Of a stretch of 33,468 bases of DNA, positions 212-10,782 are shown one piece after another (the stretch's first letter is position 1; the number at the start of each line of letters is the position of its first letter). Source of the stretch: a virus; the UHGV virus genome UHGV-0120943; one strand, given 5' to 3'. The notes under the pieces were generated by a model. The model saw nothing but the letters and a program-made list of their open reading frames with translations. It did no database searches and was not told where the DNA came from. The position numbers were made by a program, and so were the translations under genes.

Positions 212-1396
212 ATGATCAGAACAATAGCAATACGTAATTTCAAATCGTTGGTTGATGTCTCGATCAACCTACAAAAATTTAATTGTTTTGTAGGCATGAA
301 CAGTGCGGGTAAAAGTAGCATATTGCAGGCTATCGACTTCATATCGCAACAAATGCATGGATACCTCTACCTCTGGTTAGAAGATCGTGGCTGGGAGTCG
401 AAGGATCTGTACTCTCGAACGAGCAATACTAAAGCGTTTTCTCAACCACTGTTCATAGAAGTTATTTATGATCTGGACGGAAAATGCCTCGTCTGGCAAG
501 GTCATTTCAATCGTAGCCTTATGAGAATGACCCGAGAAAGTATCCATATAGACGGAGAAATGTACCTTGAGGTTATTGATGGGAAGTACAGAACACATGG
601 AAGAAGCTATGACTCAATACCTTTTGAGTATAGTGGTTCAATTTTGGCAACATTAAAAGATAACGTCATTTCTTCTGATGTTATTCATTTTCGTGATGCG
701 CTGAAAAATATCCGCTCTCTCGAGTTACTGTCTCCTCATTTATTGCGAAAGCGCTCCCGTTCGGAAATTAAACCCTCCGGAGTCGGCATTGGTGGAGAAA
801 AACTTTCGGGATACATTGATACGTTAACTCACGATGATAAAAAGATACTTCAACAGATACTCATAAAATTCTACCCACAGATAGTTGGTCTGAGAACGTC
901 GACGTTGAAAGGTGGTTGGAAACGACTGATTATTCAGGAGCGCTTTGTCGATGCAAACGGTGATGAGGCTATTTGCGAGACCGAAGCCGGACAACTCAAT
1001 GACGGATTGTTGCGTATTTTGGCCGTAATTGCTCAGCTAGAGTCCAAAGACGGGTCATTGCTTCTCTTGGATGAGATCGAAAACGGGATTAATCCGCAAG
1101 TTATTGAGCTGCTGGTAGATACTTTGGTTAATGCAAAAACGCAAGTCATTGTGACAACGCATAGCCCAATGATCCTCAATTATCTTGAAGATGATGTTGC
1201 GCGTAAGGGCATCCAGTTTGTTTATAAATCGCCACAAGGGCAAACGCGTGTCCGACCTTTCTTTGAAATGCAGCGTATAAATGAAAAACTTCAGGTCATG
1301 GGGCCTGGTGAAGCATTCATTGATACCGACCTTCAACGGCTGGCGCATGAAAATATAGAGCTTGATGAGATGCGACAAGACCTTATTAAGGATTGA
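212..1396 (+). CDS. ABC/OLD-type ATPase (AAA_15/AAA_21-like), candidate PARIS AriA-like defense ATPase
   Basis: 394-aa ORF. N-terminal IRNFKSL plus Walker A GMNSAGKSS; Walker B/D-loop LLLLDEIENGINPQ; H-loop VIVTTHSPMILN. Stop overlaps the downstream start (TGATG). Confidence 0.8.
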   Translation: MIRTIAIRNFKSLVDVSINLQKFNCFVGMNSAGKSSILQAIDFISQQMHGYLYLWLEDRGWESKDLYSRTSNTKAFSQPLFIEVIYDLDGKCLVWQGHFNRSLMRMTRESIHIDGEMYLEVIDGKYRTHGRSYDSIPFEYSGSILATLKDNVISSDVIHFRDALKNIRSLELLSPHLLRKRSRSEIKPSGVGIGGEKLSGYIDTLTHDDKKILQQILIKFYPQIVGLRTSTLKGGWKRLIIQERFVDANGDEAICETEAGQLNDGLLRILAVIAQLESKDGSLLLLDEIENGINPQVIELLVDTLVNAKTQVIVTTHSPMILNYLEDDVARKGIQFVYKSPQGQTRVRPFFEMQRINEKLQVMGPGEAFIDTDLQRLAHENIELDEMRQDLIKD

Positions 1397-2154
1397 TGAT
1401 GATTGTTGTATTGAGTGGAGAGGGGCCGTCTGATCTCGGCAGTTGTGTAAACGGGCAGGGAGAATGTCTGATAAATGATTTCAACCATGGCCCGATGACA
1501 TATTTTATAGATAAAGAGCTGGAAACATTGCTTGGGTTCTCTCTTCTTGAAATAACGCCAGATCGTTACATTTTTGTCTCAAAATCTGAGCTGATCAGAC
1601 TGACTTCAGCGAAGCGACAAAACCGATCTAGTATGAGTCTGTTAGGGAAGAAAAGGCCTGAAAAAGAGACAGGTTACTTTTATCTCAATGCTTTAATACT
1701 GGGGAATAGAGCTGCTGAGCTTGCAATTGAGCATGAAGATCCCGCAGTGATCGCAGTACTTTTTAGGGACTCTGATGGCACACGTTCTGCGAATTTATCG
1801 CTATGGCAGGATAAAGTAAACTCGATACGTCATGGATTTGATAATTCAGCTATAGGCGAACGCGGTGTTGCCATGGTTCCTAAGCCTAAGTCTGAGAGTT
1901 GGATGCTATGTGTGCTGAGAGATGGTTATGAACACTGCGCAAGGCTGGAAGATTTATCCGGGAATGATAATGTCCCCGACTCAGCTAAAAGGCAGCTGGA
2001 AGAGGCTTTAGGAAGTAATGCTTCGACATCGGCACAGATTCATCACCTCAAGCAAAGTGGCATTGATACGGCAAGACTTGCTGCACAGATGCCGAGTTAT
2101 GACGCGTTCCAACTAAGTTTGGCTGCTGCATTTCGCTTGGCTGCACAGGTTTAG
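1396..2154 (+). CDS. TOPRIM-like (OLD-family/DUF4435-like) partner of the upstream ATPase, candidate AriB-like effector
   Basis: About 252 aa, translationally coupled to the ATPase. N-terminal IVVLSGEGPSD fits the OLD-family TOPRIM hhhxEGxxD motif; a later AVLFRDSDGT supplies a DxD-type acidic motif. Track start 1393 is TTG; ATG at 1396 or 1399 is more likely. Confidence 0.65.
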   Translation: MMIVVLSGEGPSDLGSCVNGQGECLINDFNHGPMTYFIDKELETLLGFSLLEITPDRYIFVSKSELIRLTSAKRQNRSSMSLLGKKRPEKETGYFYLNALILGNRAAELAIEHEDPAVIAVLFRDSDGTRSANLSLWQDKVNSIRHGFDNSAIGERGVAMVPKPKSESWMLCVLRDGYEHCARLEDLSGNDNVPDSAKRQLEEALGSNASTSAQIHHLKQSGIDTARLAAQMPSYDAFQLSLAAAFRLAAQV

Positions 2155-2584: not shown

Positions 2585-3190
2585 TTACTTGCGTTTAAAA
2601 AGGTATTTTGTCACGACCAGCACGAGGCCGAATACCTCTGTCAAAGTACCGCCCATGTACAACTGGAGCGTTAAGTCTTTAAATACAAGCCATCCAGCAC
2701 CAGTGGCAAAAAATACACCATTCATTATCAGAAGTTGGCAAGCAAGGATAATCAGGAACCATTTGCCATAGCGTTTTTTTAGATCGATTTCAGCTTCAAA
2801 ATCTTTGTTGTTGAGTTGTTTGCGCTCATGCTCGGTATCAAGTGAATCCACCTGCTTCACAGATGTGAACTCGGTCAAGATTTTGCTCTCAGTACGGGTG
2901 ACTTGTTGAGATGGTGTAGCAGTTGGAATTCTTTTGATTGACGCAGCTACAGCCATTTTGCGAGCTTCGGCAGCTCTTTTTCTGGCTATTCCGTGAATAC
3001 GGGCAGACGGTTTTTTTGGAGCGTGCGAAACCTTTGGCTGAGGTGAAGTTTCGTCGGGAGACTGAACCGGGGTTTCATCGTCCCCCGGCTCAACCTCTTC
3101 TGCTAACTGACGGTGTAGGTTGAGGGAATCCTTCAGTCGGCGTGCAACTTCCTGTTTGAAACGGCTGTTAAAATCGTCATCCGATGGCAT
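2585..3190 (-). CDS. Membrane-anchored protein with charged low-complexity N-terminal region and two C-terminal hydrophobic helices; candidate effector
   Basis: 201-aa ORF starting 9 bp after the ImmA-like stop. C-terminus WFLIILACQLLIMNGVFFATGAGWLVF ... EVFGLVLVVTKYLF is predicted transmembrane. Confidence 0.6.
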   Translation of the reverse strand: MPSDDDFNSRFKQEVARRLKDSLNLHRQLAEEVEPGDDETPVQSPDETSPQPKVSHAPKKPSARIHGIARKRAAEARKMAVAASIKRIPTATPSQQVTRTESKILTEFTSVKQVDSLDTEHERKQLNNKDFEAEIDLKKRYGKWFLIILACQLLIMNGVFFATGAGWLVFKDLTLQLYMGGTLTEVFGLVLVVTKYLFKRK

Positions 3191-3199
3191 TCTAAAGCG

Positions 3200-3688
3200 T
3201 TACCCCAACCTCAAGTTCTTTAAACGATAAGTCATCGCATCGTCAGATACGCCAAAATAATGCGCCATTATATAACTTGGTTGGCCGTCAGCGTGCAGTT
3301 TTCTGACCTCATCAACCGGCATCAGAAGTTCTGCTGCGAACTTGTTCGCAAAAATTTCATCAGGATGCGTTCCGGCGCTTGCGGTTTCGCCACGTAAATC
3401 AACGTACTCATATTCATCACTATGCGATGCTTGCCGGGCGATGTAATGCCCCAACTCATGCCCACATGAAAAACGTTGACGAACTTTGTTGTCATCACTG
3501 TTTAGAAAGATCGCTGGATCTTGATCTTTTTGTTTAATCAGTGCGCCAGAAACTTTCCCAGGAAGATCGGTAATAAAAACATCTAATCCCATGTCGTGAG
3601 CAATTTTCGCTGGATCAACAGGGAAACCACGCCCGCACCAGAACGTGTCCAGCACTCGCCGGGCGTGCTCTCTTGGGTTGGTAGCCAT
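3200..3688 (-). CDS. ImmA/IrrE-family zinc metallopeptidase (HEXXH)
   Basis: 162-aa ORF with HELGHY zinc-binding motif in the FSCGHELGHYIARQ context typical of ImmA/IrrE (COG2856/DUF955). GGAGGAG Shine-Dalgarno upstream of the ATG. Confidence 0.8.
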   Translation of the reverse strand: MATNPREHARRVLDTFWCGRGFPVDPAKIAHDMGLDVFITDLPGKVSGALIKQKDQDPAIFLNSDDNKVRQRFSCGHELGHYIARQASHSDEYEYVDLRGETASAGTHPDEIFANKFAAELLMPVDEVRKLHADGQPSYIMAHYFGVSDDAMTYRLKNLRLG

Positions 3689-5867: not shown

Positions 5868-6503
5868 ATGAATGGTTTTTACGACGACTGGCCTGAAACG
5901 TTCGTCACCCGACTGGACATGTTGCGAGCGCTGGATAACAGAGGGGCAACCCGGAGACTCTACACAAAACGTACAGGGGCGATTTACAACGCGCTGGCTG
6001 ACGAGGTTCGTGATGCCGTGGCTGGATTCAATACCAGTGAACTCGACTTAGGACCACTCTACCGGTATTACAAACGTGGAGGAGAGGGCGAAGTGCTGGC
6101 AGACACACTGATCGCACTGGCACCGCCTGTGTGCAGGCGCGTAATGATTTCCCCTGACGTATATACAATACCGTACCTGTTTTTTGCGCTGTTGATAGCG
6201 CGAGGAGAGGACGACGATGCACGTGATTTTTTCAATATGATGATGCGGCCGCTAATCGTGGCGTACCGGTTCAAACAACTGGCGCGTTACCTGGGAACAA
6301 AGGGCGGAGGGAGGCCACAGCACAGGCTTAAAGACGAGGCATTACAGATTGCAGAGGTTTTTTTCACAAATAACCCCCACGCACGGGTTAGTGCGGCGGT
6401 GGCACGTATTAACGAAATTCTCGTAAAAAAATATGCGGACGTTCCGGCGGAATCAACAATCAGAAAATGGTTAACCCCTGTTTATGGAAATGAAAAAAAA
6501 TAA
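5868..6503 (+). CDS. Hypothetical prophage protein
   Basis: Track ORF starts at TTG 5838; ATG at 5868 has a GGGGA Shine-Dalgarno 6 nt upstream. No family recognised. Confidence 0.6.
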   Translation: MNGFYDDWPETFVTRLDMLRALDNRGATRRLYTKRTGAIYNALADEVRDAVAGFNTSELDLGPLYRYYKRGGEGEVLADTLIALAPPVCRRVMISPDVYTIPYLFFALLIARGEDDDARDFFNMMMRPLIVAYRFKQLARYLGTKGGGRPQHRLKDEALQIAEVFFTNNPHARVSAAVARINEILVKKYADVPAESTIRKWLTPVYGNEKK

Positions 6504-6610
6504 CCATAAACCGTTTTTTCCGGGAATAAACCGTTTAATCAAATTCACGAGATGAATATAATTGCTCATTATTCCCCCATCGCATTTGACGTTATGACAT
6601 ACGATAAAAA

Positions 6611-6630
6611 ATACTGTATATATATACAGG
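6611..6630. promoter_or_regulatory. Near-consensus LexA (SOS) box
   Basis: ATACTGTATATATATACAGG against consensus TACTGTATATATATACAGTA: perfect CTGT-N8-ACAG core. Sits between a TTGACG -35-like hexamer (6586-6591) and the RBS of the ORF at 6650. Confidence 0.7.
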
Positions 6631-6649
6631 ATTTCTGTCAGGGGGAAAT

Positions 6650-6829
6650 ATGAACACACACGAGGCGATCAGCAAATTACCGGATACGTGCCGGGCTGTA
6701 ATCAAACGAGAAGATGGGCGCGTAGTGAGTGTGCGTGTTCTCAGCGACGACGAGCGGATTGCCAGCCTGATGGCGTTTCTCGAGTTGGCAGAAATAGCTG
6801 GATATACTATTACACCCCCTGACGCGTAA
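6650..6829 (+). CDS. Small hypothetical protein (59 aa), candidate SOS-regulated gene
   Basis: ATG at 6650 preceded by AGGGGG Shine-Dalgarno; TAA at 6827-6829. Below the 60-aa cutoff of the ORF track. Translation MNTHEAISKLPDTCRAVIKREDGRVVSVRVLSDDERIASLMAFLELAEIAGYTITPPDA. Confidence 0.45.
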   Translation: MNTHEAISKLPDTCRAVIKREDGRVVSVRVLSDDERIASLMAFLELAEIAGYTITPPDA

Positions 6830-6906
6830 AACACGGTATAATATCGGTGCTGGATTGAACACCCGGCACCATTTTCTGAACACTGCCGCGCCACCTGGAG
6901 TTAACC

Positions 6907-7503
6907 ATGGCGCAGCATTCATTTATCAGGGTATCCGGCGGTTCGCTAATACCCGCGACACCAGACACGCAACGCTGGTTGACTGAACGAGTCAAACCAG
7001 GTGCTGTTGTGTATGCAGATTTCAAACAGGCGCGTAATCCCGCGTTTCATCGTAAATTTTTCTCACTTCTCAACCTGGGCTTTGATTACTGGCATCCGTC
7101 CGGAGGGGCTATTTCTCCTGCGGAGCGCGAACTGGTTCACGGCTACGTTAAATTACTGGCGTATTACGGTGGACACGGCGATGTCATGGCAGAGCTGGCT
7201 GATCAGTATCTTCTCGATGAATCGGAAAAGCGCGCGGGGAATATCAGTGCGGTGAAGTCGTTCGAGGCGTTTCGCGCATGGGCGATTATGGAAGCTGGGT
7301 TTTATGACGTTCATCAGATGCCAGACGGTAGTTTGATGCGCGTACCTCGTTCAATCTCGTTTGCTGCGATGGACGATCTTGAGTTCGGTCAACTGTATTC
7401 AGCCGTTTTAGATGTGCTGTGGAATTATATTTTGTTCCGCACGTTTGCCTCTCAGGAGGCCGCTGAAAATGCTGCCGCGCAGCTGTTGGATTACACATCA
7501 TGA
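6907..7503 (+). CDS. Lambdoid nin-region protein, YbcN/DUF1367-like
   Basis: 198-aa ORF; my recollection of the YbcN/DUF1367 family and its position before a YbcO-like gene and Q. Start has a GGAG Shine-Dalgarno. Confidence 0.6.
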   Translation: MAQHSFIRVSGGSLIPATPDTQRWLTERVKPGAVVYADFKQARNPAFHRKFFSLLNLGFDYWHPSGGAISPAERELVHGYVKLLAYYGGHGDVMAELADQYLLDESEKRAGNISAVKSFEAFRAWAIMEAGFYDVHQMPDGSLMRVPRSISFAAMDDLEFGQLYSAVLDVLWNYILFRTFASQEAAENAAAQLLDYTS

Positions 7504-7793
7504 AAAAAATCGACCTGAGAAAAGCTGCACGTGGTCGCGCTTGTACTGTGCGTATCCCCGGTGTGTGCAATCACAAGCCTGAAACCAGCGTACTGGCTCA
7601 TTATCGTCTCGCCGGAACGTGCGGCACAGCCATCAAACCTCACGATATGCAGGGCGCTATCGCCTGCAGTGCGTGTCACGATGCCATCGACGGACGTACA
7701 AAAACGGATTACGAGCGTGATTCCTTATTACTGATGCACGCTGAGGGAGTTTTCAGAACACTGGCTATCTGGCGCGATGAGGGGGTTATCTGA
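7500..7793 (+). CDS. Cys-rich nin-region protein, YbcO/DUF1364-like
   Basis: 97-aa ORF, ATGA overlap with the upstream gene; conserved cysteines (CTVRIPGVCN ... IACSACHDAIDGR). Confidence 0.6.
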   Translation: MKKIDLRKAARGRACTVRIPGVCNHKPETSVLAHYRLAGTCGTAIKPHDMQGAIACSACHDAIDGRTKTDYERDSLLLMHAEGVFRTLAIWRDEGVI

Positions 7794-8464
7794 TGAATAA
7801 CGAGTATTTATTGGAATATACCCGCATAAAACTGCGCGCTGCATTGCGGAATTTGTCTGGTGGTTCTAAGGGGCAACTGGAAGCATTGTGTGAGCACCCA
7901 CCGGCAGACAAAAACGCATACCCACGCAAACATATTCACCGTGTGCAGCTGGAGGACCGGACCGTTGATGCTCTGGTTACGCCAGTTTACGCTCTGGAAA
8001 GTTTTAGCAGACGTCGCCCCGCGCCGCCGATGAATGATTTTGAATTTGCTGATTCATCCTGGCGGCGTTCTGTGAACTCGCTGGATGCAAGTCAGCAAGC
8101 GTGGTTGCGTTATTGCTACGGTGGTAACCTGGCGTTCAAACACCAAACAGCTATTTGTGAGGCTGTCTGGAGTCGCTATAAAGGACACATCCCCGCGTCA
8201 ACTCAGAGAAAAGTAGTTAAGCGCCTGCTTTCGTTGGTGTGGTTGTCCGTGCAGGCGGTTGCAGCAGCAAATAAACGCGAGGATTTTAAGGAGATGGCCG
8301 GGTCTGCGCTAGCTGGAATGTTGTCTGTTTCTCGTTCCACCTGGTGCGAAACATACTCCCCGCACTGGGCAGGAATGAAAGAGGCGGTGAGAGCACTTGA
8401 TGAAATGGCACTTCTTGCAACTTTGCATCATTATCAGAACCATTTAGACGACGTTTGCGTATAA
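7793..8464 (+). CDS. Putative late-gene antiterminator (Q-like)
   Basis: 223-aa ORF at the end of the nin region, immediately before the lysis cassette. Call is positional; no motif verified. Confidence 0.45.
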   Translation: MNNEYLLEYTRIKLRAALRNLSGGSKGQLEALCEHPPADKNAYPRKHIHRVQLEDRTVDALVTPVYALESFSRRRPAPPMNDFEFADSSWRRSVNSLDASQQAWLRYCYGGNLAFKHQTAICEAVWSRYKGHIPASTQRKVVKRLLSLVWLSVQAVAAANKREDFKEMAGSALAGMLSVSRSTWCETYSPHWAGMKEAVRALDEMALLATLHHYQNHLDDVCV

Positions 8465-10284: not shown

Positions 10285-10782
10285 ATGAAATCATTAACCC
10301 TCTTCAATCAACCAATCCGCGTCGGGGATGATGGCATGATCTGCCTCACCGACATGTGGAAAGCCAGCGGCAAAAGTGACGCTGAATCGCCGTACCACTA
10401 TCTGCGAAACAAGCAGACAAAAGAGTTCCTGGCCGAGCTGGAGAAAAACCACGAATCTGTGGTTTTCACTGCCCGCGGCGTACACGGCGGAACCTATGGC
10501 GGGAAGTTTGTTGCTTACGATTATGCGGCTTGGTTAAACCCAGGGTTCAAGTATGCAGCCTATAAAGTACTCGATGACTACTTCACCGGAGAGCTTCGGC
10601 ATCGTAATAGCTTAAGTGCGCAGCTCAACATGAAGTGTTATGAGTTTGACCAGAAGAAAGACATGGCGAGCTTCTGTGGGCAAGGACTCGCGGCATGGCG
10701 TTATACAAAGCCTGTGCTGATCGCTGAGATGAACACCTTGGCAAACCAACTGCAGATTACGCTCCCTGGACTTCCTGGATGA
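10285..10782 (+). CDS. KilA-N domain protein
   Basis: 165-aa ORF; N-terminus LTLFNQPIRVGDDGMICLTDMWKASGK resembles the KilA-N/APSES-type domain common in prophage accessory genes. Confidence 0.6.
   Translation: MKSLTLFNQPIRVGDDGMICLTDMWKASGKSDAESPYHYLRNKQTKEFLAELEKNHESVVFTARGVHGGTYGGKFVAYDYAAWLNPGFKYAAYKVLDDYFTGELRHRNSLSAQLNMKCYEFDQKKDMASFCGQGLAAWRYTKPVLIAEMNTLANQLQITLPGLPG

Follow-up and report, generated by a model that had tools for sequence, protein, structure and literature searches.

The Gifsy prophages of Salmonella are induced by the small antirepressors GfoA, GfhA and GftA, not by repressor cleavage (PMC3121763). The immunity region does not include the antirepressor genes, which belong to an operon repressed by LexA, with the order LexA box-dinI-antirepressor-irsA (Lemire, Figueroa-Bossi, Bossi 2011, PMC3121763). 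Both LexA-dependent induction and repressor-antirepressor complexes were demonstrated in that work, the data being consistent with a 2:2 complex, and lexA-dependent control by the Gifsy box was proven genetically (PMC3121763). Lemire et al. counted irsA as part of the LexA operon, reported that dinI is dispensable for induction, and predicted that short non-cleavable repressors as a class depend on antirepressors (PMC3121763). FsoA, a relative of the Gifsy antirepressors, is found in Fels-1 and is dispensable for induction of its own phage (PMC3121763). In E. coli K-12, Rem of the Qin prophage relieves DicA repression, and three other K-12 candidates failed to do so (PMC10448788).

We fixed the identities of FsoA, GftA and GfoA through the primers in Table S1 of PMC3121763. 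GftA is STM1020.1n of Gifsy-2, a 73-aa protein with a GTG start, and FsoA is STM0898.2n of Fels-1, with 78 aa. Primer pp644 of Lemire et al. identified irsA as STM1020, which encodes a DUF1367 protein. GfoA has the N-terminus MSNSALQK and the C-terminus RRLGYRVTPPSDI, and by these termini gp49 of coliphage mEp237 is a GfoA-type protein. Exact-pattern scans of viral contigs with the two gfoA primer sequences gave no match; the pattern used in the first of these scans had an ATG where the gene starts with another codon. We reached GfoA instead through its near-orthologue, mEp237 gp49.

The locus described here lies on a viral sequence of 33,468 nucleotides (UHGV-0120943), referred to below as the window. 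It contains a candidate LexA (SOS) box, TACTGTATATATATACAGGA, at 6612-6631. The box agrees with the 20-nt LexA consensus TACTG(TA)5CAGTA at 19/20 positions, with 1 mismatch, and its CTGT-N8-ACAG core occurs only once in the whole window. That bare core is weak evidence alone, since 26 of 100 dinucleotide-preserving shuffles of the window yielded at least one copy. Sites with 3 or fewer mismatches to the full 20-nt consensus appeared in 0/100 shuffles. A -35-like hexamer TTGACG (6586-6591, plus strand) was paired by a consensus scan with the -10-like hexamer AATACT (6610-6615, plus strand) at a spacing of 18 nt, and the -10-like hexamer therefore overlaps the left arm of the box. As a consensus match only, we describe this TTGACG/AATACT pair as promoter-like. 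The site thus shows two features of a LexA operator, a palindrome with an AT-rich spacer and a predicted overlap with the core promoter. By direct sequence reading, a Shine-Dalgarno-like GGGGGA (6641-6646, plus strand) stands 4 nt 5' of an ATG, which itself follows the box by 38 nt and opens a 59-codon ORF. We looked for an intrinsic terminator 5' of the LexA promoter, as in Gifsy, and found none in the window.

An initial annotation of this DNA had proposed a near-consensus LexA box with a perfect CTGT-N8-ACAG, located between TTGACG and the ribosome-binding site of a small ORF. The consensus match and the shuffles bear out the box, and direct sequence reading bears out its placement. The 20-mer originally given covers 6611-6630, and the box aligned to the consensus covers 6612-6631.

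Comparison with relatives strengthened the case for the operator. Between the box and the first start codon lie 38-40 nt in the window, E. coli, E. whittamii, Gifsy-2 and mEp237, and the same spacing holds in most of the 56 viral contigs described below. Across E. coli, E. whittamii, Gifsy-2 and mEp237, the box arms TACTGT and ACAG are invariant, and the AT-rich spacer and both flanks vary. Fixed arms with a changing spacer and changing flanks are the footprint expected for a LexA operator. Gifsy-2 and mEp237 have TATACT fused to the LexA box before dinI, the same arrangement as in the window, and the fused -10 reads (T/A)ATACT in all three. The -35-like hexamer is TTGATG or TTGGCG in E. coli relatives, and the G-rich block 5' of the start codon is also retained in relatives.

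The 59-codon ORF occupies 6650-6829 on the plus strand, with its ATG at 6650 and its stop codon at 6827-6829. Against E. coli homologues (29-31 differences per 180 nt), substitutions number 7/3/19-21 at codon positions 1/2/3. Because of this bias toward the third position, and because distant homologues of about 60 aa exist, we judge the ORF to be a real gene. The earlier view of it as a small unannotated ORF was correct as to the gene and incorrect as to its annotation, since RefSeq E. coli genomes do annotate the ORF, only as a 'hypothetical protein'.

A word-indexed search for homologues of the 59-aa protein returned close Escherichia relatives only, whereas a full HMMER search of 1.8 billion representatives reached a wider family. 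The latter search gave 22 proteins at E <=0.001, most of them 61-66 aa long, which share the motif GRV-x5-NG-x3-S-x-R-x4-DEH[IV]A[ST]L-x2-F-x-E[LM]A-x2-AGY-x-[IV]-x-PP. Among the PHROGs, the protein falls into phrog_340 ('unknown function') with an E-value of 5.9e-20. Pfam, NCBIfam and PADLOC gave no match, and neither a sequence-profile nor a fold search of the PDB turned up a credible one. AlphaFold2 predicted one compact unit (pLDDT 91) made up of a short helix, a beta-hairpin and a helix. With no credible fold or sequence match among solved structures, the model provides no mechanistic detail. Two distant homologues, P0022 (240 aa) and P0025 (120 aa), carry two antirepressor-like domain copies per polypeptide, which is consistent with a protein that works as a dimer.

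The window protein is related to several of the proven small antirepressors. Pairwise BLASTP aligned it with FsoA at 49% identity over 43 aa (E 2e-10) and with the GfoA-type gp49 of mEp237 at 35% identity over 51 residues (E 2e-10). A 19-sequence family profile matched mEp237 gp49 with 97.5% probability (E 6.5e-12), and the same profile matched Rem of Qin in hhalign with 92% probability (E 6.6e-7). FsoA (E 1.1e-26) and the GfoA type of mEp237 (E 1.4e-20) also match phrog_340, and GftA is filed in phrog_4847. The relationship to GftA is marginal (hhalign E 0.0056), and direct BLASTP of the 59-aa protein against GftA gave no alignment. By homology, then, the 59-aa protein belongs to the small-antirepressor family of FsoA, the GfoA type and Rem. 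At 59 aa it is a small single-domain protein like the other members (about 60-85 aa), and its gene lies outside the immunity region, directly 5' of irsA/DUF1367, as theirs can.

The initial annotation had suggested that a gene under LexA control at this position would be an antirepressor or an induction modulator. Searching with the 59-aa protein yielded FsoA, the GfoA type and Rem as relatives, and this homology, together with the position of the gene before an irsA homologue, supports that suggestion. FsoA, the GfoA type and Rem have been shown by experiment to inactivate short prophage repressors (PMC3121763, PMC10448788), and the homology therefore backs a predicted antirepressor function.

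Three genes follow on the plus strand. The first (6907-7503; PF07105, E 2e-78) encodes a DUF1367 protein that is a homologue of Gifsy irsA, with 56% identity to STM1020 of Gifsy-2 (E 9e-83). It had previously been labeled YbcN-like; that label was dropped, as BLASTP against K-12 YbcN gave E 0.44 and the protein is of the IrsA/STM1020 type. The other two labels, YbcO-like and Q, agreed with our searches. The YbcO-type nuclease gene (7500-7793; PF07102, E 1.8e-41) has a start that overlaps the DUF1367 stop, and the Q-type late antiterminator gene (7793-8464; PF06323, E 3.4e-37; phrog_304, E 9e-76) has a start that overlaps the YbcO stop. No intrinsic terminator was called between 6300 and 7000. 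LexA control may reach DUF1367, YbcO and Q, as the initial annotation had suggested.

The gene order is box-dinI-antirepressor-irsA in Gifsy-2 and mEp237, and box-antirepressor homologue-irsA homologue in the window. A phmmer search with Gifsy-2 DinI found no DinI-like ORF between the box and DUF1367 in the window. Since dinI is dispensable in Gifsy, its absence marks a variant and does not exclude the locus from the group. Given the order and spacing of the box, the small gene and the irsA homologue, the window locus is, as read from its sequence, the LexA box-antirepressor-irsA module of Lemire et al. 2011 minus dinI.

We compared 56 viral contigs that encode a relative of the DUF1367 protein (64-100% identity). 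A phrog_340-like ORF ends 66-85 nt before DUF1367 in all 56. In 37 of them a perfect CTGT-N8-ACAG stands directly 5' of the small ORF without dinI, and a further 12 deviate from the core at one of its eight positions (e.g. TACTGGATATCTATACAGTT). One contig has a perfect box and keeps dinI, four keep the small gene and have no LexA-type box, and two end too early for the box to be evaluated. A LexA-type box therefore stands directly before the small gene, with no dinI, in 49 of the 54 evaluable contigs. The phmmer search with Gifsy-2 DinI found no DinI-like ORF between the box and DUF1367 in 55 of the 56. Many of these contigs are closely related to each other, so the counts describe prevalence and not independent events. 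Among the close relatives sampled, the dinI-less layout is the common form. The locus is also present in 445 of 5,426 complete E. coli genomes, once each and always on the chromosome, including strains H105 and 81009. A genome scan with close sequences detected a single locus, in E. whittamii. No complete RefSeq E. coli genome matched the window over long stretches with an identity above about 96%.

The spacer between the small gene and DUF1367 is 77 nt long and contains a second conserved feature. A nearly invariant TATAAT without a -35 partner (6837-6842, plus strand) is followed 3 nt later by a stem-loop, GGTGCTGG-ATTGAACAC-CCGGCACC (6846-6870, plus strand). The promoter scan did not call TATAAT at 6837-6842. 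The hexamer is conserved in 41 of 43 distinct intergenic sequences and reads CATAAT in Gifsy-2 and GATAAT in mEp237. All 43 distinct relatives aligned, including these two, have a TATAAT-type hexamer plus a stem-loop, and the loop YTGAACAC is conserved in Gifsy-2 and mEp237 too. The stem covaries: 6 of its 8 pairs change on both sides, and we counted 47 compensatory cells versus 14.9 in shuffles. None of 500 shuffles reached 47, and slid controls were far lower.

We considered and rejected two familiar roles for this hairpin. As a terminator it has only 4 U after the stem and was not called, and it folds with no exceptional stability (z -0.66). A nut-like role is unsupported because no further copy of the hairpin lies near the early promoters of complete relatives. 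Rfam gave no match at the module locus. In mEp237 (L009, 1668-1716) there is a second such element, CATAAT plus a 14-bp stem with the loop CCTGAACAT, which lies just upstream of the dinI operon's terminator and LexA promoter. It is possible, although we hold this only tentatively and think it rather unlikely, that TATAAT and the hairpin form an undescribed cis-regulatory element that gates transcription from the LexA promoter into DUF1367-YbcO-Q. Such an element could act as a gate at the RNA level, through processing, pausing or antitermination, or serve as a promoter that needs an activator and carries a 5' stem-loop. Under this reading, late-gene antitermination would be licensed directly by LexA, in addition to repressor inactivation.

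The window is an entire metagenome contig that starts in an accessory region, and it therefore contains no immunity region and no repressor gene. The missing left arm reflects an assembly break and not a deletion, because longer contigs with an identical protein run into replication genes. Complete E. coli relatives with the same backbone (H105, GF131 and two NCBI assemblies) show what the full prophage looks like: an integrase beside a tRNA-Gly/Cys/Leu cluster, a 130-aa HTH repressor, YdaS, YdaT, replication genes, accessory genes and then the module. The repressor gene is about 12 kb upstream of the module. Its 130-aa product, WP_000853106.1, has an HTH_3 domain only, without a peptidase domain, and is 33% identical to GtgR of Gifsy-2 over its full length (E 5e-23). 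It thus falls into the short non-cleavable class for which Lemire et al. predicted a dependence on antirepressors. This GtgR-related repressor is the expected target of the 59-aa protein; with the repressor gene absent from the contig, the predicted cognate pairing rests on the relatives.

We consider it likely that this locus feeds the SOS signal into a prophage switch of the Gifsy style and that the 59-aa gene encodes a LexA-controlled antirepressor. In an undamaged cell, host LexA bound at 6612-6631, over the -10 region, would silence the 59-aa gene. After DNA damage, RecA-stimulated self-cleavage of LexA would free the promoter and allow the small protein to accumulate. The 59-aa protein would then bind a short non-cleavable HTH repressor (GtgR/GfoR/DicA type, about 130 aa), and once the repressor left its operators, lytic transcription could begin. 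We infer LexA binding, SOS induction and repressor binding by analogy with the proven systems; the same transcript may continue into DUF1367-YbcO-Q. A point against the antirepressor model is that belonging to this family does not guarantee activity on a given repressor, as the three K-12 candidates that failed on DicA and the dispensable FsoA illustrate. The shortened N-terminus of the protein, its marginal similarity to GftA, the lack of Pfam, NCBIfam or PDB matches and the four related loci that keep the gene with no LexA box also count against the model.

One could argue that the palindrome is an AT-rich inverted repeat that arose by chance, or the operator of a phage protein, and not a LexA site at all. 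The bare core does turn up in 26 of 100 shuffles, as described above, but no shuffle contained a site within 3 mismatches of the consensus that the window matches at 19/20 positions. The box also recurs at the same position in unrelated backbones with only the LexA-contact arms invariant, and the homologous Gifsy box confers lexA-dependent control (PMC3121763). The consensus match and the conservation together make a chance palindrome very unlikely. A different possibility is that the LexA site is genuine and its promoter mainly serves DUF1367-YbcO-Q, providing SOS-driven recombination/nuclease activity and late antitermination, with the small gene a first cistron of minor or trans importance. 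Several features would suit such an arrangement. No terminator was called from 6300 to 7000, the DUF1367, YbcO and Q genes are packed with overlapping start and stop codons, Lemire et al. place irsA in the LexA operon, and FsoA shows that members of the family may be dispensable for their own phage (PMC3121763). However, the Gifsy-2 antirepressor gene alone suffices for induction, and non-polar irsA deletions have no effect (PMC3121763). The conserved TATAAT and covarying hairpin between the small gene and DUF1367 suggest separate control, and expression of Q before replication would be an unusual design. We consider this explanation unlikely.

The gene and its box are under purifying selection in many prophages that carry the matching short repressor, which is hard to reconcile with a small protein that is an inactive copy or that acts solely as an orphan, cross-talk antirepressor on the repressors of other resident prophages. 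This trans-only reading does have some basis: GfoA, GfhA and FsoA act in trans on heteroimmune repressors (PMC3121763), the 59-aa protein is shorter than the proven members, and the contig has no immunity region. The last point loses its force because the missing left arm is an assembly break, as the longer contigs with an identical protein indicate. We regard it as quite improbable that the protein is an orphan or inactive. Both the trans-only reading and the one centered on the downstream genes are less well supported than an SOS-controlled antirepressor acting on the prophage's own repressor.

Other features of the window are worth recording. At 212-2154 (plus strand) there is a two-gene candidate defense system, consisting of an AAA_15/AAA_21 ATPase (PADLOC PDC-M25A, E 3e-157) and an overlapping 253-aa ORF (PDC-M25B, E 5e-96). 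An ImmA/IrrE Peptidase_M78 gene lies at 3200-3688 (minus strand); its best PADLOC match is CapP, which is defense-associated (E 2.8e-25), and it is followed on the same strand by a gene for a 201-aa protein (2585-3190, minus strand) with no family match. We considered induction via this ImmA/IrrE-type peptidase and rejected it: the gene is on the opposite strand in the accessory region, its best match is CapP, and it adjoins no HTH partner, none being found among ORFs in the 470 nt upstream. Past the lysis genes, a gene at 10285-10782 (plus strand) codes for a KilA-N/ORF11CD3 protein. Proteins of this type are often annotated as antirepressors. A CTGT-N8-ACAG scan of the window found no LexA-type box near this gene. 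Near the right end of the contig, Rfam detected sRNA-Xcc1 (RF02221) at 33031-33116 (minus strand) with 69.3 bits (gathering score 53).

Published work has covered the mechanism, the protein family and the operon layout since 2011. This analysis adds a predicted function, that of an antirepressor, for the unlabeled phrog_340 family and for the proteins that RefSeq lists as a 'hypothetical protein' in a widespread Escherichia prophage. The predominance of the dinI-less layout among relatives and the conserved element before irsA are also new. We predict that these prophages are induced through LexA and an antirepressor and not through repressor self-cleavage. Following Lemire et al. (PMC3121763), such a route could be reversible and could cross-induce co-resident prophages.

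The closest described systems are the dinI-gfoA-irsA operons of the Gifsy prophages and the corresponding operon of mEp237. GfoA/GfhA of Gifsy-1/Gifsy-3 and gp49 of mEp237 share with the window protein the phrog_340 family and a C-terminal GY-x-[IV]TPP motif. The genes occupy the same position, directly 5' of irsA/DUF1367 and outside the immunity region, and share a promoter layout in which the box is joined to the -10 and stands 38-40 nt ahead of the first start. A short repressor of the Gifsy type occurs in relatives of the window. Unlike Gifsy and mEp237, the window has no dinI, and the antirepressor homologue is therefore the first cistron. Its product is 59 aa long, not about 80 aa as in the GfoA type, starts with ATG and not UUG or GUG, and is missing 15-25 residues present at the N-termini of GfoA, FsoA and Rem. 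The nin region downstream is reduced to DUF1367-YbcO-Q, and the E. coli relatives carry a myovirus-type virion module with tail sheath, tube and baseplate genes. GftA of Gifsy-2 has the same operon position and the same function, but its sequence similarity is marginal and it belongs to another PHROG (phrog_4847).

By sequence, the proven member nearest to the window protein is FsoA of Fels-1, a small protein able to inactivate GtgR, the repressor of Gifsy-2. The fsoA gene belongs to the early left operon, which the cleavable Fels-1 repressor controls, and is not under LexA (PMC3121763), whereas the window gene follows a LexA box. A TACTGT-N8-ACAG sequence does occur in Fels-1 (L002, 1341-1358), inside the coding sequence of the repressor gene fsoR (STM0898), and may be due to chance. 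Rem of Qin is a family member whose gene is directly 5' of ydfU-ydfT(Q). It has no intact LexA box 5', only a look-alike, AAAAATACTtaagtagcgcgCAGG, which resembles a decayed copy of the window's AAAAATACTgtatatatataCAGG. Decay of this box may explain the absence of known SOS control of Rem. The look-alike and a terminator resembling those that precede the LexA promoters of Gifsy and mEp237 both lie 5' of rem in Qin of E. coli K-12 (L012, 6903-7060, minus strand). Tum of coliphage 186 and AntC of N15 are set apart by their description as larger, unrelated proteins (Tum has 146 aa and a DinI-like half). Their regulation nevertheless follows the same scheme, in which LexA represses an antirepressor gene located outside the immunity region (cited in PMC3121763).
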